Assembly (NCBI RefSeq): GCF_024298765.1
Contig: NZ_CP101210.1
Length of the DNA: 64,000 nucleotides
Source: Escherichia coli
GTDB lineage: Bacteria > Pseudomonadota > Gammaproteobacteria > Enterobacterales > Enterobacteriaceae
Strand: one strand, 5' to 3'
A model generated the notes under the pieces. It was given only the letters and a program-made list of their open reading frames with translations, did no database searches and was not told the DNA's origin. Of this stretch, positions 7,026-51,900 are shown piece by piece. Positions within the stretch are counted from its first letter, which is position 1. Every line of letters begins with the position of its first letter. A program made the translations under genes and the position numbers.

Positions 7026-7931
7026 TTATTTTGAAGCTGGAGTAAACAGCGCAGAATAGTCTGTATTGCAGATACGCTGTACTGCAGGGTGCTGAATCAT
7101 CCTTTCGGCAAAAATCGCGTGGTACTCTTCCATCACGTTCTCAACACGGCCTATCTCCACAACCGAGTCATCGTTATAGAAATCATTAGCGTAAAGCGAA
7201 GGTGCAACGAAAATAGCGTTATGCGTCGCCCCAAAGGCTTTCATCAACGCAGCATCATCAAACTCACCCAAAATTTCGACGTTCAAGCCCTGGGAGTTAA
7301 ACCAGTTTAATAGCTTACGCCCCAACATTGAGCGACGCCCCGGAATAAGTAAACGACGCTCTTCAAGACAGGCAGGAAACGGCTTTTCTGGTAGTGGGTT
7401 AGTGCACCAGAAACTGACACCACATTCGCCAATTTTCATGGAAAACAGCCCTTCCTGCTGAGTGGAATCGATCGGACAGTCAGAGATGATCATATCCAGT
7501 TTATGCTGACTCAACTGCTCTAAAAGCATCTCGTGCGTCGATTCGAAACAGCGTAGATGGATCTGCTCGTCTTCCACAACTGCGGCATCCAGAACACTGC
7601 TGACCAGACGTTTGGAAAGTGCATCTGCCACACCAACATCAAACAATAAGTTGGATTCTTTGCGATAGTTCACGATATCCAGCATTTCCTGGCTTAAGGT
7701 GAACATTTTATCGGCATAGCGATAGACCAGCTCTCCCAGCTCGCTGGGCTCGAGGCCACGTCCCTTGCGCTTAAATAATTTGCCTTGCAGGCGCTCTTCC
7801 AGCGCCCGAATCTGTCCGGTAATGGTTTGTGGTGTTAAATAAAGCGCCTCCGCTGCGCCAACCACGGAACCTTCTTTATAGACATGCCAGAAGTAATACA
7901 AGTGGTTGTAATTGATATGAGACATGCTCAT
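7026..7931 (-). CDS. nhaR: LysR-family transcriptional activator NhaR
   Basis: ORF 7026..7949; known N-terminus [30 protein letters not shown] at an internal ATG; 301 aa. Confidence 0.93.
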
Positions 7932-7990
7932 TTCTCTCCCTGATAACAATGAAAAGGGAGCCGTTTATGGCTCCCCGGTAAACCGTCCTG

Positions 7991-9157
7991 TCAAACTGAT
8001 GGACGCAAACGAACGCGTAACCAGCTGTATCCAATTACCGCCGAAGAGATAGAACCGACCAGGATACCGAGTTTCGCCCAGTTAATCAGTTCTGGATCTA
8101 CGCTACCAAAGGCCAGGCTGGCAATAAAGATAGACATAGTAAAACCGATACCGCACAGGATCCCCACCGCCATAATTTGCTGATAAGTCGTTCCCTCAGG
8201 CAGATGCGCCAGTTTCAAACGCAGCGCCAACCAGCAGAACAGACTAATCCCCAGCGGTTTGCCAATCAGCAAGCCAGCGATGATCCCCAATGGCAGAATG
8301 GAGGTCAAGCCATCCAGCGTGACGCCTTGCAGTGAAACGCCAGCATTAGCAAATGCAAACAGCGGTAAAATCAGATACGCCACCCACGGGTGCAACACAT
8401 GCTCCAGTCGCTTCGCTGGAGAACGCCCATGCTTCTCTTTCAAAGGAATAAAGAAGCCGACAATTACCCCCGCCAGGGTTGCGTGAACCCCCGATTTCAA
8501 CACCGCAGTCCACAACACCACGCCAACCAGAATATAGACGCCCGTGCGGCGTACACCACACAGATTCAATACCGCGAGTACCGCAATTGCTACAGCCGCG
8601 ACGCCAAGAGAGGCCATCGATAAGTCATTAGTGTAGAACAATGCGATGATAATGATGGCCCCAAGATCGTCGATAATAGCCAGAGCCATCAAAAAGATCT
8701 TCAGGGCTAACGGAACACGACTTCCCAACAGCGCCAGCACACCAAGTGCAAAAGCAATGTCAGTAGCCGCCGGGATCGCCCACCCTTCGCGGGTAATCGG
8801 ATCGGCATGGTTAAAGGCCAGATAGAGTAATGCCGGCACAATCATCCCACCAATAGCGGCGATAACTGGAAATGCAGCCTGGCGTAAGCTGGCTAGCGAT
8901 CCTTGCATCAGTTCACGTTTAACTTCCAGACCGACTAACAGGAAAAATACCGCCATCAGCGCGTCATTTATCCATAACAGCATGTTTTTGTTGATTTCGA
9001 GTGAACCAACCCGGAGCTGAACCGGCGTCTCCAGAAAGTCGTGATACCATCCACTGGTTGCGCCGCTGTTGGCCATAATCATCGCCAGGATAGCGGCAAT
9101 GATAAGAATAATGCCTCCCGAGGCATCACTGCTAAAGAATCGATGCAGATGTTTCAC
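7991..9157 (-). CDS. nhaA: Na+/H+ antiporter NhaA
   Basis: 388 aa polytopic membrane protein [31 protein letters not shown]... Confidence 0.96.
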
Positions 9158-48256: not shown

Positions 48257-49036
48257 TTAGTAGCTGCTGGCGCTCTTACCGTCACCGTGGCCCAGCGCTT
48301 TCAACAGGCTTGCCAGCAGGCTGGAAGCACCAAAGCGGTAGTGACGCGCATCTGCCCAGTCAGCACCGAACAGTTCATCTGCGATGGCGAGATATTTCTG
48401 CGCATCTTCCGCAGTACGCACGCCGCCCGCTGGTTTGAAACCAACGGTTTTTTCTACGCCCATATCACGGATCACTTCCATCATGATGCGCGCGCTTTCC
48501 GGCGTCGCGTTCACAGCCACTTTACCGGTAGAGGTTTTGATGAAGTCCGCACCCGCTTTGATGGAGATTTCAGACGCTTTACGGATCAGCGCTTCGTCTT
48601 TCAGTTCGCCGGTTTCGATGATCACTTTCAGCAGTACATTCGCTGCCGCGCAAGCCTCTTTACAGGCTTTCACCAGGTCAAAACCAACCTGCTCGTTACC
48701 CGCCATCAGCGCGCGGTACGGGAACACAACGTCAACTTCATCAGCACCGTAGGCGATTGCCGCACGGGTTTCTGCCAGCGCGATTTCGATGTCATCGTTA
48801 CCGTGTGGGAAGTTGGTTACCGTAGCGATTCGGATTTCCGGGGTGCCCTGCTCTTTCAGCGTTTTGCGAGCAATCGGGATAAAGCGAGGATAGATACAGA
48901 TAGCGGCGGTATTGCCGACCGGAGTTTTGGCCTGATGACACAGAGCAATTACTTTCTCGTCGGTGTCGTCGTCATTCAGGGTGGTCAGGTCCATCAATTT
49001 CAGTGCACGCAGGCTGCTTGCTTTCAGATCAGTCAT
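48257..49036 (-). CDS. deoC: deoxyribose-phosphate aldolase
   Basis: ORF 48257..49060; known start [29 protein letters not shown] at an internal ATG; 259 aa. Confidence 0.96.
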
Positions 49037-49293
49037 TTCATTCTCCTGGCTTGTCGCCAATAAAATTCACCTTGCGAGTTTGTTAGTATTCTAACATCTA
49101 CTCCGCAACACACTTCGATATACATCACAATTAAGGAAATCTACTTACAAGTTTGCATCACTGTAATGCGATCTGGTTCAAATAATTCACTTTCAAATGA
49201 ATGCGTCAGTGGTGGCAAACGCATCAGGATCAAAGTGAACATCACGAAACTTCTTACAATGGCGCATCACCTTCGGCATAAAAGGAAAAGAAG

Positions 49294-50844
49294 ATGCCCA
49301 CTTCTCATGAAAATGCACTGCAACAACGTTGCCAGCAAATTGTCACCAGCCCAGTGCTTAGCCCGGAGCAGAAGCGCCATTTTCTGGCTCTGGAAGCAGA
49401 AAACAATCTGCCTTATCCGCAGCTTCCTGCCGAAGCCCGCCGCGCGCTGGATGAGGGTGTAATCTGCGATATGTTTGAAGGTCATGCGCCGTACAAACCG
49501 CGCTATGTCTTACCCGATTACGCCCGTTTTCTGGCGAACGGTTCCGAATGGCTGGAGCTGGAAGGCGCGAAAGATCTTGATGATGCACTCTCTCTGCTGA
49601 CCATTCTTTACCACCACGTACCATCGGTCACATCGATGCCGGTCTACCTGGGGCAACTGGATGCGTTGTTGCAACCGTATGTTAGAATTCTAACACAAGA
49701 CGAGATCGATATTCGAATAAAACGTTTCTGGCGTTACCTCGACAGAACCCTGCCAGACGCCTTTATGCACGCCAATATCGGCCCGTCTGATTCGCCCATT
49801 ACCCGCGCGATCTTACGTGCAGACGCAGAGTTGAAGCAGGTTTCACCGAACCTGACCTTTATCTACGATCCTGAAATCACCCCTGATGACCTACTGCTGG
49901 AAGTGGCGAAGAACATCTGTGAATGTAGCAAACCGCACATCGCCAACGGTCCGGTGCATGATAAAATTTTCACAAAAGGGGGCTACGGGATTGTGAGCTG
50001 TTACAACTCACTGCCGCTGGCGGGTGGTGGCAGCACGCTGGTACGCCTTAACCTGAAAGCCATTGCCGAGCGCAGTGAATCGCTGGATGACTTCTTTACA
50101 CGCACTCTACCGCACTACTGCCAGCAGCAGATCGCCATCATCGATGCGCGGTGTGAATTCCTCTATCAACAATCACACTTCTTTGAGAATAGCTTCCTGG
50201 TGAAAGAAGGGCTGATTAACCCTGAACGTTTTGTGCCAATGTTTGGCATGTACGGATTGGCGGAAGCAGTTAACTTACTGTGTGAGAAAGAAGGAATTGT
50301 CGCACGTTACGGTAAAGAAGCCGCTGCAAATGAAGTGGGTTATCGCATCAGCGCGCAACTGGCGGAGTTTGTCGCCAATACCCCCGTGAAATATGGCTGG
50401 CAAAAACGCGCCATGCTACACGCACAGTCGGGGATCAGTTCCGATATTGGCACCACGCCGGGTGCACGCTTGCCGTATGGTGATGAGCCAGATCCGATCA
50501 CCCATCTGCAAACCGTCGCCCCGCATCATGCTTATTATTATTCCGGCATCAGCGACATTCTGACGCTCGACGAAACCATCAAACGTAATCCGCAGGCGCT
50601 GGTACAGCTTTGCCTCGGTGCCTTTAAAGCCGGAATGCGTGAATTTACCGCCAATGTCAGCGGTAACGATCTGGTTCGCGTTACCGGTTATATGGTGCGT
50701 TTGTCGGATTTAGAAAAATATCGCGCCGAAGGTTCACGCACCAACACCACCTGGCTGGGAGAAGAAGCCGCACGCAACACTCGTATTCTGGAACGCCAGC
50801 CGCGCGTGATAAGCCATGAACAGCAGATGCGCTTTAGTCAGTAA
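49294..50844 (+). CDS. yjjI: glycyl-radical-enzyme-like protein YjjI (DUF3029)
   Basis: 516 aa [44 protein letters not shown]... Confidence 0.88.
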
Positions 50845-51679
50845 GATTATCCCCTTCTCCTGCGTTGACGGGCCAGGCAGTCGTCTGGCTCTGTTTTTGC
50901 AGGGCTGCAATCTGCGCTGCAAAAACTGTCACAATCCGTGGACGATGGGGCGCTGTAATGATTGCGGAGAGTGCGTGCCGCAGTGTCCGCATCAGGCGTT
51001 GCAGATTGTTAACGGCAAAGTGGTGTGGAACGCTGTGGTTTGCGAGCAATGTGATACCTGCCTGAAGATGTGCCCGCAACATGCCACGCCAATGGCGCAA
51101 TCCATGAGCGTGGATGAGGTGCTTAGCCATATCCGCAAAGCAGTGCTGTTTATTGAAGGGATAACGGTGAGCGGCGGCGAAGCCACGACCCAGCTGCCGT
51201 TTGTGGTGGCGCTGTTTACTGCCATCAAAAACGATCCGCAACTGTGCCATCTCACCTGTCTGGTGGACAGTAACGGTATGTTGAGCGAAACCGGCTGGGA
51301 AAAATTACTTCCGGTGTGCGACGGCGCAATGCTCGATCTCAAAGCGTGGGGGAGCGAATGTCATCAGCAATTAACCGGACGCGATAATCAGCAGATTAAG
51401 CGCAGCATCTGTTTGCTTGCCGAGCGCGGCAAGCTGGCAGAACTGCGTTTGCTGGTAATCCCTGGCCAGGTGGATTATTTGCAACACATCGAAGAACTGG
51501 CGGCGTTTATCAAGGGACTTGGCGATGTTCCGGTACGCCTGAACGCGTTTCATGCCCACGGCGTGTATGGCGAAGCGCAAAGCTGGGCGAGCGCCACGCC
51601 GGAAGATGTTGAGCACCTGGCTGGCGCTTTACAGGAGCGCGGGGTGAGCCGGTTGATATTTCCGGCGCTATATTTGTGA
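50816..51679 (+). CDS. yjjW: radical SAM glycyl-radical enzyme activase YjjW
   Basis: 287 aa; N-terminal CxxxCxxC ([12 protein letters not shown]) plus ferredoxin-like cysteine clusters; overlaps yjjI by 29 nt. Confidence 0.88.
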
Positions 51680-51683
51680 CATG

Positions 51684-51900
51684 CCGGATGTGGCCTACGG
51701 ATCGGCACAGACCTGTAGGCATGATAAGACGCGTCAAGCGTCGCATCAGGCATTGTGCGCCAGCTGCCGGATGCGGCGTGAACGCCTTATCCGGCCTACG
51801 GTTCGGCACAGACTTGTAGGCATGATAAGACGCGTCAGCGTCGCATCAGGCATTGTGCGCCAACGGCCGGATGCGGCGTAAACGCCTTGTCCGGCCTACG
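51684..51900. repeat. BIME: three REP copies separated by two copies of a roughly 65-bp spacer unit
   Basis: Repeated gccggatg(c/t)ggc...cctacgg(a/t)tcggcacagac(c/t)tgtaggcatgataagacgcgtca...gcgtcgcatcaggcattgtgcgcca units. Confidence 0.85.

Follow-up and report, generated by a model that had tools for sequence, protein, structure and literature searches.

Gene neighborhoods across lineages point the predicted glycyl radical enzyme YjjI and its activase YjjW toward nucleoside or ribose catabolism

Glycyl radical 1,2-eliminases and dehydratases, a group that comprises glycerol or propanediol dehydratase, CutC, HypD, and IslA, carry a Cys-x-Glu signature in the Cys loop, with the Glu serving as a general base. 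Two glycyl radical enzymes of E. coli that were once orphans, PflD and YbiW, share this dehydratase signature and act on cyclic polyol phosphates; they are 765–810 aa long, match the Pfam PFL-like and Gly_radical families, and have activases of the ferredoxin-insert type. PDB entries for PflD and YbiW with ligands of the sugar-phosphate type date from 2024 (8yjo, 8id0, 8yjn, and 8id7, each a 'probable dehydratase'), with PflD bound to 1,5-anhydromannitol-6-phosphate. In PflB (PFL), C–C cleavage needs the pair Cys418-Cys419. The anaerobic, FNR-dependent ribonucleotide reductase NrdD, shown to act on ribose-containing substrates, combines a glycyl radical near the C-terminus with a single thiyl cysteine on a finger loop. 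By our own assessment, YjjI is possibly the last E. coli K-12 glycyl radical enzyme without a reaction.

We analyzed a 64,000-nucleotide stretch of Escherichia coli DNA (the window; NCBI RefSeq assembly GCF_024298765.1, contig NZ_CP101210.1) that holds the yjjI-yjjW pair, a locus that is already known as such. In window coordinates, its features are:

49294..50844, plus strand: yjjI, 516 aa, ATG start; YjjI-family glycyl radical enzyme, predicted minimal 10-stranded barrel
49999..50001, plus strand: Cys236 codon in the loop G-I-V-S-C-Y-N, predicted thiyl-radical (H-abstracting) cysteine
50677..50691, plus strand: codons of R462-V-T-G465-Y466, glycyl-radical motif, with Gly465 as the predicted radical site
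50816..50844, plus strand: overlap of the yjjI 3' end and the yjjW 5' end, 29 nt, from the ORF list
50816..51679, plus strand: yjjW, 287 aa, ATG start; predicted radical-SAM activating enzyme for YjjI
50906..50929, plus strand: YjjW C31-x3-C35-x2-C38, predicted radical-SAM [4Fe-4S] cluster motif (translation; Radical_SAM PF04055 and Fer4_12 matches)
50954..51073, plus strand: YjjW ferredoxin-like insert with two CX2CX2CX3CP motifs (translation; Fer4-type matches)

An initial annotation of this DNA, made from the letters alone, had described a 516-aa and a 287-aa frame overlapping by 29 nt, and the ORF list bears this out, with 50816–50844 as the common segment. It called the first product DUF3029-type, and that product indeed matches Pfam PF11230 'YjjI-like', formerly DUF3029, over profile positions 1–485 of 485 (E 5e-220, 731 bits, cut-off 23), as well as NCBIfam TIGR04040 (787 bits, cut-off 498). 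Judged by such profile scores, a chance origin of the family matches is excluded; the NCBIfam grade of TIGR04040 and of TIGR04041, the model that YjjW matches, is still 'hypoth_equivalog'. Together with the family matches, 100% identity of the 3-kb stretch to E. coli chromosomes annotated deoC, yjjI, yjjW, and yjjV confirms the proposed identity as the conserved YjjI/YjjW pair, and at least 80% of the stretch is present in 5422 of 5426 complete genomes. The 29-nt overlap suggests that the two genes form a single operon, possibly with translational coupling; an overlap of similar size (~26 nt of tblastn match, stop codon excluded) occurs in Escherichia, Citrobacter, Salmonella, Enterobacter, Proteus, and Providencia loci. 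With 542 representative clusters out of 1.84 billion, the YjjI family is a small one; nevertheless its members come from Enterobacteriaceae of the gut, Gilliamella of the bee gut, loci with a Pasteurellaceae-like gene order, at least one archaeon, and many uncultured anaerobes. Of 43 metagenomic lineages, 40 have an activase gene next to that for YjjI. The full-text literature, with most subscription journals outside its coverage, yielded no substrate or other functional assignment for yjjI or yjjW, no biochemical or genetic experiment on YjjI, and no EPR report of its glycyl radical, so the statement that the reaction is not established still holds.

The resemblance to a glycyl radical enzyme and its activating enzyme, also noted in the initial annotation, is upheld by the motif, the fold, and the TIGR04041 match. 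Its proposed check for a C-terminal glycyl-radical motif was positive, with R462-V-T-G465-Y of YjjI aligned with IRVSG734Y of PFL; thus neither an assigned substrate nor a missing motif, the two findings named there as contrary evidence, emerged. Among 62 diverse family members R462, G465, and C236 are invariant (C236 also among 26 members), and Y466 is 95% conserved. When PDB sequences were searched with the family profile, PflB (1h16) was the only solved protein reached at E <1e-3 (E 3.8e-4), with S235-C236 of YjjI aligned with C418-C419. C236 is the only invariant cysteine of the family (62 members), and we predict it to be the catalytic cysteine, on a finger loop opposite the glycine loop. 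S235 and N238 are each 98% conserved, and two positions ahead of C236 the family has Val or Ala. The family also has invariant R70, K213, R251, R392, H159, and H376 (62 members), and E62, D123, D150, and E305 vary little or not at all. C58 is 82% conserved, with H, D, or Y instead in 10 of 62 members, and M316 is 84% conserved; C440, the only cysteine in residues 331–516, is 16% conserved.

A search of PDB sequences with the single YjjI sequence gave nothing meaningful (best E 0.89); PFL, YbiW (E 1.6e-3), and NrdD were reached only with the family profile. Against Pfam, E. coli YjjI had no ATP-cone or NRDD match at E up to 0.01; some members of its family also match NRDD. The predicted model of YjjI (pLDDT 91.7) found class III ribonucleotide reductases as its top Foldseek matches (E 6e-17, TM 0.73), and the predicted fold is the ten-stranded alpha/beta barrel common to glycyl radical enzymes and ribonucleotide reductases. 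On this model, no type of glycyl radical enzyme is smaller than YjjI, which has little beyond the barrel: it has 516 aa, compared with 712 aa for NrdD, and is ~240 residues shorter than PflB. Unlike PflD and YbiW, it falls under the PFL-like and Gly_radical thresholds. Its Cys loop also sets it apart from the described enzymes, with Ser235-Cys236 in place of the Cys418-Cys419 pair and S-C236-Y-N238 in place of Cys-x-Glu. Because Cys236 is followed by Tyr-Asn rather than x-Glu, the motif does not support an eliminase analogy and makes membership in that group less probable, although elimination may proceed via another base.

Both features described for YjjW can be read in its translation: CxxxCxxC and the additional ferredoxin-like cysteine clusters. 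The latter are C47-x2-C50-x2-C53-x3-C57-P and C76-x2-C79-x2-C82-x3-C86-P, and residues 42–90 are matched by Fer4, Fer4_7, Fer4_9, and related families; the insert is predicted to hold two auxiliary [4Fe-4S] clusters beside one SAM-cleaving cluster. TIGR04041, 'YjjW family glycine radical enzyme activase', is the only NCBIfam activase model that YjjW exceeds (398 bits, cut-off 250); the next best, hydroxyproline dehydratase activase (142 bits) and TIGR02494 (133 bits), both score below cut-off. With the ferredoxin-insert activases (PflC/PflE of TIGR02494 and those of hydroxyproline dehydratase, choline TMA-lyase, and 4-hydroxyphenylacetate decarboxylase) YjjW shares an N-terminal V-D-G-P-G-x-R, here V17-D-G-P-G-S-R23, and CX3CX2C followed by two CX2CX2CX3C motifs, but it lies below the cut-off of all their models. 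PflA structures (3c8f/8fo0) match YjjW at E 5e-19 with the C-x3-C-x2-C cluster motifs aligned, but PflA is without the ferredoxin insert, which appears as a gap between two aligned stretches, and NrdG likewise has no two-cluster insert. In some distant lineages the partner of YjjI is an activase of 247–250 aa without the insert.

We then annotated 183 yjjI/yjjW loci and defined lineages as YjjI clusters at 70% identity; both this definition and the reference gene set were picked after the first matches had been seen. Diverse family members came from exact-protein look-ups and from a metagenome scan seeded with distant members, a genome-collection scan with a smaller family alignment having found only close gammaproteobacterial relatives. 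We located yjjI by tblastn against the DNA in place of ORF calls, by which five loci had seemed to lack it; in L169, L171, and L177 the gene had been hidden by a long ORF on the opposite strand of GC-rich DNA. One locus with 30% GC, L098, appears to require genetic code 4.

In 14 of 34 informative lineages, at least one core gene for nucleoside transport or catabolism is found no more than 6 kb from the pair, and the gene orders number at least nine. The neighbors include Bmp/PnrA ABC transporters, NupC, NupG, Cdd, Add, and Pdp, and also DeoD, DeoB, DeoC, ribonucleoside hydrolase, and ribokinase. In the window the neighbor is deoC, and the gene orders are:

48257..49036, minus strand: deoC, first gene of deoCABD, nucleoside-catabolism neighbor, divergent from yjjI
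Enterobacteriaceae and Hafnia: deoCABD divergent from yjjI-yjjW
Gilliamella (L080): nupG-add-5'NT-cdd-pdp-yjjI-yjjW
L107: yjjI-yjjW-nupC-deoD
L173, with L125, L127, L166, L169, and L176 similar: bmp-yjjI-yjjW-ABC-permease-permease-deoC-add-deoB
L147: yjjI-yjjW-cdd-pdp-deoC-deoB-deoD
L096: nucleoside hydrolase, ADP-ribosylglycohydrolase, PfkB, deoD, sulfatase-like, yjjI-yjjW, MFS, bmp, ABC
L152, L156, and L158: ribokinase-yjjI-yjjW, then further on nucleoside hydrolase
L010: nucleoside hydrolase-PfkB-yjjW-yjjI
L130: NUDIX gene between yjjI and yjjW

The density of nucleoside genes per 10 kb was 0.90 at 0–3 kb from the pair, 0.73 at 3–6 kb, and 0.42 at 6–10 kb, set against a genome-wide background of ~0.03 that is our estimate rather than a measurement. 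After the activase, the five commonest neighbor families are ABC ATPase, Bmp, permease, nucleoside hydrolase, and PfkB. The ribokinase beside yjjI in L152, L156, and L158 scores 335 bits on TIGR02152 (cut-off 300). Part of the enterobacterial signal is one inherited synteny. The association is also found in several unrelated lineages of low identity (33–45% to E. coli YjjI) besides Gammaproteobacteria, and the differing gene orders suggest that the pair has become associated with nucleoside genes repeatedly and independently. No nucleoside gene lies within 6 kb in the other 20 of the 34 lineages, among them Proteus, Providencia, Aliivibrio, Photobacterium, one actinobacterial, and one archaeal lineage. 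We conclude that the neighborhood, which the initial annotation had not seen, considerably narrows the reaction toward nucleoside or ribose catabolism. Strings of 'ABC transporter' genes downstream of yjjW in L130, L131, and L133 were left uncounted as housekeeping genes, which from their N-terminal sequences we take to be ruvA-ruvB-(secreted protein)-queA-tgt. ADP-ribosylglycohydrolase-like and sulfatase-like genes also recur as partners.

Expression of yjjI is anaerobic: published data show an FNR ChIP peak with anaerobic activation (PMC3688515), membership in an FNR-activated cluster (PMC2634741), and 4.3-fold anaerobic induction in Yersinia (PMC3792023). In a multi-species bicluster from E. 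coli and Salmonella, yjjI groups with narGHJI and with FNR- and NarL-like motifs (PMC3228777), and in one transcriptome it is up alongside nar, nap, nir, and frd genes (PMC6643234). Upstream of yjjI we noted:

49220..49233, no strand assigned: candidate FNR site TTGAT-CCTG-ATGCG (minus-strand reading), from a motif scan
49255..49260, plus strand: TACAAT, possible -10 hexamer of the yjjI promoter

One half-site of the candidate FNR site is perfect, and its center would lie ~41 bp upstream of the start implied by TACAAT, a class II position. A generic sigma-70 scan left TACAAT uncalled because a -35 hexamer is absent, as is usual for class II activator-dependent promoters. A generic promoter and terminator scan for yjjI gave one intragenic promoter-like match and terminator-like matches at chance level. 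Our first FNR-box candidate, TCGATATACATCAC at 49115–49128, was rejected, as it coincides with the CRP site already published for deoP2 and the site at 49220–49233 is better placed.

We think it fairly probable that yjjI-yjjW encodes an FNR-induced, presumably oxygen-sensitive two-component radical enzyme whose target is the ribosyl moiety of nucleosides, most likely in the form of ribose-5-phosphate. By the mechanism established for this superfamily, YjjW in its reduced state would cleave S-adenosylmethionine, and the 5'-deoxyadenosyl radical would take a hydrogen from Gly465. In every catalytic cycle, Cys236 would be oxidized to a thiyl radical by the glycyl radical, and this thiyl radical would abstract a hydrogen atom from the substrate and return hydrogen to the product radical. 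The gene context suggests as substrate the ribosyl part of imported nucleosides, and ribose-5-phosphate would be the common product of ribonucleoside hydrolase with ribokinase and of nucleoside phosphorylase with phosphopentomutase; a closely related pentose phosphate or a ribonucleoside is a possible alternative. The likeliest chemistry would be the first half of the ribonucleotide-reductase reaction, with hydrogen abstraction from a furanose carbinol carbon followed by radical-assisted elimination at C2 and loss of the neighboring C–O bond, giving a deoxy-keto pentose phosphate that could be split into C2 and C3 units. This would be comparable to the chemistry of PflD and YbiW on cyclic polyol phosphates. 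Since the second, reducing cysteine of the reductase is absent, a net reduction is probably not involved. That YjjI carries out such a reductase-like C2–O cleavage, with ribose-5-phosphate or a 2'-modified ribosyl compound as the free pentose phosphate or nucleoside attacked, would be a new type of glycyl radical reaction; we hold this tentative proposal to be rather doubtful. Counting against the main reading, E. coli already metabolizes ribose-5-phosphate via the pentose phosphate pathway and so would have no obvious physiological need of a radical route, and in E. coli and Salmonella expression data yjjI clusters with genes of nitrate respiration and not with deo (PMC3228777, PMC6643234).

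Much of the same evidence could be read otherwise. The substrate might travel with nucleosides and yet differ from plain ribose phosphate, the reaction being on a modified nucleoside, at the glycosidic C–N bond, or on the nucleobase; for example, the ether of a 2'-O-methyl-ribonucleoside from rRNA or tRNA might be cleaved by an RNR-like elimination of methanol. The nucleoside-gene neighborhood would fit this too, and in L125, L127, L169, L173, and L176 the pair sits between bmp and the rest of the Bmp/PnrA ABC transporter, an arrangement suited to an enzyme whose substrate is the imported molecule itself. No radical enzyme would be needed for ordinary ribose phosphate, ribonucleotide reductases eliminate non-natural 2'-substituents, and the ADP-ribosylglycohydrolase-like and sulfatase-like partners hint at decorated ribosyl compounds. 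However, the sequence favors no particular modification, the genuine ribokinase encoded just upstream in one lineage is better suited to free ribose or ribose-5-phosphate, and the many invariant Arg, Lys, and His side chains hint at a substrate with negative charge, probably a phosphorylated one, so we regard such a substrate as unlikely. We judge it decidedly unlikely that the neighborhood is meaningless, a product of hitch-hiking or sampling bias, and that YjjI acts on an unrelated small molecule such as the diols, amines, sulfonates, and aromatic acids used by most other recently assigned glycyl radical enzymes. The 20 lineages without nucleoside neighbors, the post hoc choice of lineages and reference set, and the estimated background would allow it, but at least nine gene orders in Gammaproteobacteria and several unrelated lineages lead to one and the same pathway, the five commonest non-activase families all belong to it, the density of its genes decays with distance, and no competing pathway recurs.

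The structural matches to class III enzymes raise the further idea that YjjI is a stripped-down fourth ribonucleotide reductase, class III-like, that makes deoxy forms of ribonucleotides or ribonucleosides. The family profile matched E. coli NrdD at E 5.6e-5 over 407 columns, nearby deoC, deoB, and phosphorylases would let the resulting deoxynucleosides be fermented, and C58 and M316 can be imagined as a substitute redox pair. Yet C236 is the only invariant cysteine and C58 is replaced in 10 of 62 members; the reducing C175 of NrdD (F-N-C-M) has no counterpart, falling in a gap at P69-R70-Y71|V72 of YjjI, a mapping that is approximate, as hhalign of the YjjI family against NrdD (probability 66%) misplaced the Cys loop by ~10 residues, for which reason we assigned C236 from the PFL profile alignment instead. 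With the same caveat on mapping, Met382, two before the catalytic Cys in M382-G-C384, is Val or Ala in the YjjI family. YjjI also scores under the Pfam NRDD gathering threshold and lacks the ATP cone, the allosteric specificity apparatus, and the C-terminal four-Cys zinc site, its last 80 residues holding C440 only, and E. coli already has NrdAB, NrdEF, and NrdDG. A fourth reductase is thus very unlikely. We give least credence to a role in anaerobic nitrogen-oxide metabolism, which seems extremely improbable. The bicluster with narGHJI and its FNR- and NarL-like motifs, and the joint rise with nar, nap, nir, and frd genes, suggest such a role, but common FNR control accounts for the co-expression with no need for a shared pathway. 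The NarL heptamer (TACYYMT) was not found on either strand of 49041–49300, and no nitrate, nitrite, or NO gene is among the recurrent neighbors of the 183 loci. We know of no glycyl radical enzyme that acts on an inorganic nitrogen compound.

What is new in this analysis is the association with nucleoside genes across lineages, and it is from that context that we infer the substrate. Before, the substrate of this orphan radical enzyme was approachable only by guessing compounds; the neighborhood trims the candidates to ribose-5-phosphate, ribose-1-phosphate, deoxyribose-5-phosphate, nucleosides, and 2'-O-methyl nucleosides, all commercially available. With a ribosyl substrate, the pair would add a new branch to gut nucleoside fermentation. 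Among living systems, YjjI would then come closest to a reductase-like barrel that works with neither allostery nor a protein reductant, and this would bear on the evolution of ribonucleotide reduction. If C2–O cleavage also held, YjjI would be a minimal, unregulated form of the reductase/glycyl-radical barrel, and anaerobes would have a route independent of the pentose phosphate pathway from RNA-derived ribose to C2 and C3 fermentation products. A 2-deoxy-3-keto intermediate could, for example, yield acetaldehyde along with a triose phosphate or 3-phosphoglycerate; another possible product is 2-deoxyribose-5-phosphate for DeoC. Were the nucleoside hypothesis false, yjjI-yjjW would stay the well-catalogued conserved orphan that the initial annotation had described.

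In E. coli, yjjI also shares regulatory DNA with deo. Motif scans of the deoC-yjjI intergenic region and the yjjI reading frame gave the following sites, none with an assigned strand:

49081..49096: DeoR operator O2, TGTTAGTATTCTAACA, at deoP2
49114..49129: CRP site TGTGATGTATATCGAA (minus strand), deoC-yjjI intergenic, in the deoP2 cassette
49167..49182: second CRP-like site, TGCGATCTGGTTCAAA, in the deoP2 CRP/CytR cassette
49680..49695: DeoR operator O1, perfect palindrome TGTTAGAATTCTAACA, marking deoP1, within yjjI codons 129–134 (Y-V-R-I-L-T)
49959..49974: candidate third DeoR operator OE, TGTGAAAATTTTATCA, within the yjjI ORF, differing from the palindrome at 4 positions

The 279-bp spacing from O1 to the candidate OE is the spacing reportedly found by Dandanell et al. 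in 1987. O2 and O1 are 599 bp apart, the published deoP1-deoP2 spacing (PMC3334521). A sequence identical to TGTGATGTATATCGAA is a CRP ChIP-seq site between yjjI and deoC (PMC4287617), and the deoP2 CRP/CytR cassette architecture has been described (PMC3454398); the CRP-like site TGCGATCTGGTTCAAA is centered ~93 bp upstream of the putative yjjI start site. Two of the three DeoR operators, O1 and the candidate OE, thus lie inside the yjjI coding sequence, into which the deo regulatory DNA extends, a feature likewise not seen in the initial annotation, and E. coli yjjI appears to be wired into the deo regulon, with its promoter and first 680 bp between the three operators and beside the deoP2 CRP/CytR cassette. 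Among the sampled genera, O1 is absent where yjjI stands away from deoC; where deoC adjoins yjjI, it is identical at 16 of 16 positions in nine of 13 genera and has one mismatch in the other four.

The two genes lie on the same strand, with the 3' end of yjjI overlapping the 5' end of yjjW by 29 nt, and their G+C content (0.51–0.56) is similar to that of their surroundings:

49294-50844, + strand, yjjI ORF, 516 aa
50816-51679, + strand, yjjW ORF, 287 aa

YjjI matches Pfam PF11230 ('YjjI-like') over its full length (E 5e-220) and NCBIfam TIGR04040 with 787 bits (cut-off 498). YjjW matches Radical_SAM, Fer4_12 and several ferredoxin families in Pfam, and scores 398 bits (cut-off 250) against NCBIfam TIGR04041, 'YjjW family glycine radical enzyme activase'. 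E. coli chromosomes are 100% identical in DNA here, and their annotated order is deoC, yjjI, yjjW, yjjV, the two outer genes lying on the opposite strand; at least 80% of our 3-kb query is present in 5422 of 5426 complete E. coli genomes. The initial annotation had described a conserved pair, a DUF3029-type protein overlapping a radical SAM protein; ORF coordinates, family matches and near-universal presence show it to have been right in every detail. Locus, family and pairing were all catalogued before this analysis.

YjjI almost certainly belongs to the glycyl radical enzyme class. Searching PDB sequences with YjjI alone gave no match, and the family profile found E. coli pyruvate formate-lyase (PFL; E 3.8e-4), aligning YjjI S235-C236 with PFL C418-C419 and L-V-R-V-T-G465-Y with T-I-R-V-S-G734-Y. 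We aligned 26 homologues (down to 29% identity) and then 62 sequences, among them one member of each lineage (a YjjI cluster at 70% identity) represented in the fetched loci. Among the 62, 13 positions are invariant, including C236, in the loop G-I-V-S-C-Y-N, and R462 and G465, in the motif R-V-T-G-Y. The proposed resemblance to a glycyl radical enzyme is therefore borne out by an invariant C-terminal motif (RVTG465Y, aligned to PFL RVSG734Y), and the predicted hydrogen-abstracting cysteine, C236 by the PFL profile alignment, is also present and invariant. A confident AlphaFold2 model (pLDDT 91.7, pTM 0.91), built from the alignment, has class III ribonucleotide reductases as its top Foldseek matches (E 6e-17, TM 0.73) and other glycyl radical enzymes next. 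By this model, YjjI amounts to the superfamily barrel with little added.

The translation of YjjW contains V-D-G-P-G-S-R, the CxxxCxxC cluster noted earlier (C31-x3-C35-x2-C38) and, as the extra ferredoxin-like cysteine clusters also noted then, two ferredoxin-type CX2CX2CX3CP motifs (C47-C57 and C76-C86); PflA aligns with YjjW on both sides of this insert. The next-best families are the activases of hydroxyproline dehydratase, PflC/PflE, sulfopropanediol dehydratase, indoleacetate decarboxylase and CutC, all below cut-off.

To what was catalogued we add this positive motif and fold test, together with explicit negative tests against the signatures of NrdD, PFL and dehydratases. Whereas PFL has a Cys-Cys pair, YjjI has a Ser (98% conserved) before C236, ruling out a PFL-type enzyme. 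Two residues after C236, where the diol-dehydratase/eliminase loop carries Glu, YjjI has Asn (98% conserved), which argues against a canonical dehydratase. Profile comparison of the family with E. coli NrdD gave E 5.6e-5 over 407 columns, but with a probability of only 66% and the Cys loop displaced by ~10 residues, so the mapping is approximate; in it, the reducing C175 of NrdD (F-N-C-M) aligns to a gap between P69-R70-Y71 and V72 of YjjI. C236 is the only invariant cysteine in the family, C58 being 82% conserved, with His, Asp or Tyr in its place in ten members. Also absent are the Zn(Cys)4 site, the ATP cone and the Met two residues before the thiyl Cys that characterize class III reductases. 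Lacking all of these, as well as a C175 counterpart in this alignment and a second invariant Cys, YjjI does not look like a canonical class III reductase. The reductase is its nearest fold, yet the reducing half of the reductase active site is missing.

The family is small. When 1.84 billion cluster representatives were scanned exhaustively with HMMER, only 542 matched YjjI at E up to 1e-3, and many of those are fragments. Named members come from Enterobacterales, Ferrimonas and Actinomycetota, and genome loci extend the family to Gilliamella, Aliivibrio, Photobacterium, Proteus, Providencia and Hafnia. The activase gene adjoins the YjjI gene in 40 of 43 metagenomic lineages; in some distant lineages the activase is 247–250 aa long and has no ferredoxin insert. 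One such insert-free activase occurs in a pair with 40% identity to E. coli on a 171-kb contig (L101/L102; JGI 3300037598), amid archaeal informational genes (eIF-1A, eIF-2 beta, NMD3, RIO1 and a KH-domain protein), so the family reaches Archaea; no nucleoside genes lie near this pair. In another locus (L098, from a GCA_024449855.1 contig of 30% GC), the YjjI homologue under code 11 does not give the database protein, and genetic code 4 recovers a single ORF with an ABC permease gene upstream. This locus seems to need code 4, which suggests a Mollicutes-like organism in a very fragmented, possibly eukaryote-associated assembly.

A metagenome scan with an alignment of distant YjjI members gave 80 loci, and exact-protein look-ups of distant representatives (33–40% identity) gave three nucleoside-linked cases (L010, L094/L095 and L096). 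The 183 loci in all were annotated against a reference set drawn from the nucleoside operons found first. The nucleoside-linked arrangements are as follows (L-numbers are fetched loci from other genomes or metagenomes):

Enterobacteriaceae, Hafnia: yjjI divergent from deoCABD
Gilliamella: on one strand, nucleoside:H+ symporter, adenosine deaminase, 5'-nucleotidase, cytidine deaminase, pyrimidine-nucleoside phosphorylase, then yjjI-yjjW last
L010: nucleoside hydrolase, adenosine-deaminase fragment, PfkB kinase, activase, YjjI
L094/L095: YjjI and activase, with convergent ADP-ribosylglycohydrolase, nucleoside hydrolase and ABC permease
L096: nucleoside hydrolase, ADP-ribosylglycohydrolase, PfkB, DeoD-type phosphorylase, sulfatase-like protein, YjjI, activase, MFS, Bmp, ABC ATPase
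L107, L110: yjjI-yjjW-nupC-deoD, NupC confirmed by Pfam
L125, L127, L166, L169, L173, L176: bmp-yjjI-yjjW-ABC ATPase-two permeases, then deoC-add-deoB or cdd-deoC-deoB
L130: NUDIX gene (7744-8214) between yjjI and yjjW
L147: yjjI-yjjW-cdd-pdp-deoC-deoB-deoD, with a divergent Bmp transporter alongside
L152, L156, L158: ribokinase-yjjI-yjjW, with a ribonucleoside hydrolase three or four genes further (kinase 335 bits, ribokinase equivalog cut-off 300)

Of the 34 lineages whose loci have 4 kb or more of flanking sequence, 14 have a core nucleoside gene within 6 kb of YjjI; the other 20, among them Proteus, Providencia, two Vibrionaceae, an actinobacterial and an archaeal lineage, have none within that distance. 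After the activase, the commonest neighbours are a double ABC ATPase (14 lineages), a Bmp/PnrA binding protein (9) and permeases (9), then PfkB (6), nucleoside hydrolase (5) and purine nucleoside phosphorylase (4). Core-gene density decreases with distance, being 0.90 per 10 kb at 0–3 kb, 0.73 at 3–6 kb and 0.42 at 6–10 kb; the background of ~0.03 per 10 kb is an estimate (about ten genes in 4 Mb) and not a measured control. This reproducible, multi-lineage link to nucleoside uptake and catabolism is new, and it gives a short list of testable YjjI substrates. Precedent for it exists at the level of the module, without substrate or reaction.

Several other neighbours recur. A cytoplasmic-looking sulfatase-family protein, whose best NCBIfam matches (arylsulfatase, choline-sulfatase) fall below cut-off, adjoins YjjI inside nucleoside-gene clusters in two unrelated lineages (L096 3806-5341, L161 5509-7113). 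It could have phosphopentomutase-like or phosphatase activity, as a member of the alkaline-phosphatase superfamily, or be a sign of a sulfated or decorated substrate. ADP-ribosylglycohydrolase-family genes (L094 7449-7874, L095 4445-5199, L096 1187-2206) adjoin nucleoside hydrolase and PfkB kinase genes. In three Clostridia-like lineages (L130, L131, L133), yjjI-yjjW is followed 3' by what we take, from N-terminal sequences, to be ruvA, ruvB, queA and tgt, with a gene for a secreted protein between ruvB and queA. The neighbourhood is probably a housekeeping one; two of its genes, queA and tgt, handle ribosyl transfer and a modified base. These neighbourhoods were left out of the nucleoside-link count, as was a queT gene 4 kb away in L008.

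The initial annotation had held the reaction of the pair not to be established, and the literature we searched, which largely excludes subscription journals, contains no substrate assignment. A nucleoside-derived ribosyl compound is, in our judgement, the probable substrate. Nucleoside hydrolase and ribokinase would yield ribose-5-phosphate, phosphorylase and phosphopentomutase would yield (deoxy)ribose-5-phosphate, and ADP-ribose, via NUDIX and ADP-ribosylglycohydrolase chemistry, would give ribose-5-phosphate as well; the latter two gene families may point to ADP-ribose, or to another ribosyl conjugate, as the origin of the substrate. Because different operons converge on it, we rank ribose-5-phosphate first, ribose-1-phosphate or a ribonucleoside next and a modified nucleoside last. 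The many invariant Arg, Lys and His residues among the 62 aligned sequences would be compatible with an anionic substrate.

By the superfamily's established mechanism, YjjW would cleave SAM reductively, the deoxyadenosyl radical would generate the Gly465 radical, and Gly465 and Cys236 would pass the radical to the substrate and back. With a reductase as its nearest fold but no reducing cysteine, YjjI would most simply carry out only the opening half of the reductase reaction. Hydrogen would be abstracted beside a hydroxyl, the vicinal C2 oxygen function lost, and the hydrogen given back to leave a deoxy-keto pentose phosphate. A 2-deoxy-3-keto compound would be a 1,3-dicarbonyl, splittable into C2 and C3 fragments; on paper, and speculatively, ribose-5-phosphate could thus yield acetaldehyde and 3-phosphoglycerate in a redox-neutral reaction. 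The main alternative, a formate-dependent reduction to 2-deoxyribose-5-phosphate, would feed DeoC, but the reducing cysteine is missing in YjjI and we disfavour it. Within our preferred reading, elimination of ribose-5-phosphate specifically is a tentative and rather unlikely proposal.

The yjjI gene shares its DNA with the control region of deoCABD, whose promoters are deoP1 and deoP2:

49081-49096, DeoR operator, one mismatch
49114-49129 and 49167-49182, deoP2 CRP sites
49220-49233, candidate FNR box, TTGATCCTGATGCG as read on the - strand
49680-49695, DeoR operator O1, perfect 16-bp palindrome, in the yjjI ORF
49959-49974, candidate (OE-like) DeoR operator OE, four mismatches, in the yjjI ORF

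The DeoR operators are spaced 599 bp and 279 bp apart, the second spacing matching the O1-OE distance of the deo operon. The first equals the published deoP1-deoP2 distance (PMC3334521), and the CRP site at 49114-49129 is identical to a published ChIP-seq site (PMC4287617). As O1 and OE lie inside the yjjI coding sequence, so does deoP1, and its transcripts would be antisense to the first ~390 nt of yjjI; from the positions of operators and promoters, DeoR loops would enclose the yjjI promoter. No report of DeoR or CytR control of yjjI was found in the literature searched. O1, embedded in codons Y129-T134, is identical at 16 of 16 positions in nine genera (Escherichia, Citrobacter, Salmonella, Lelliottia, Enterobacter, Trabulsiella, Phytobacter, Yokenella and Kosakonia) across which the surrounding gene is only ~85–90% identical at the protein level. 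A single mismatch is present in Kluyvera, Atlantibacter and Hafnia, and the operator is absent wherever yjjI does not adjoin deoC. O1 is a dual-use sequence, coding plus operator, and deo regulatory DNA embedded, under selection, within the yjjI reading frame is a new observation here.

FNR gives a ChIP peak at yjjI with anaerobic activation (PMC3688515), the gene falls in an FNR-activated cluster (PMC2634741), and anaerobic induction is 4.3-fold in Yersinia intermedia (PMC3792023). The box at 49220-49233 is a candidate for this control; its centre lies ~41 bp upstream of a start predicted near 49267 from the TACAAT at 49255-49260. A nitrogen-metabolism role was proposed from a bicluster with narGHJI (PMC3228777); the yjjI upstream region contains no NarL heptamer.

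Small ORFs of 98, 72 and 88 aa (49166-49485, both strands) overlap the yjjI promoter and 5' end in the deoP1-transcribed stretch and are most likely not genes. In the yjjW-yjjV gap (51690-51900), a ~110-bp GC-rich palindromic sequence containing GCCGGATGCGGCGTGAACGCCTTATCCGGCCTACG occurs as two tandem copies that look like REP/BIME elements; several spurious small ORFs fall within them, and these repeats account for the median of 38 match sites per E. coli genome obtained with the 3-kb query.
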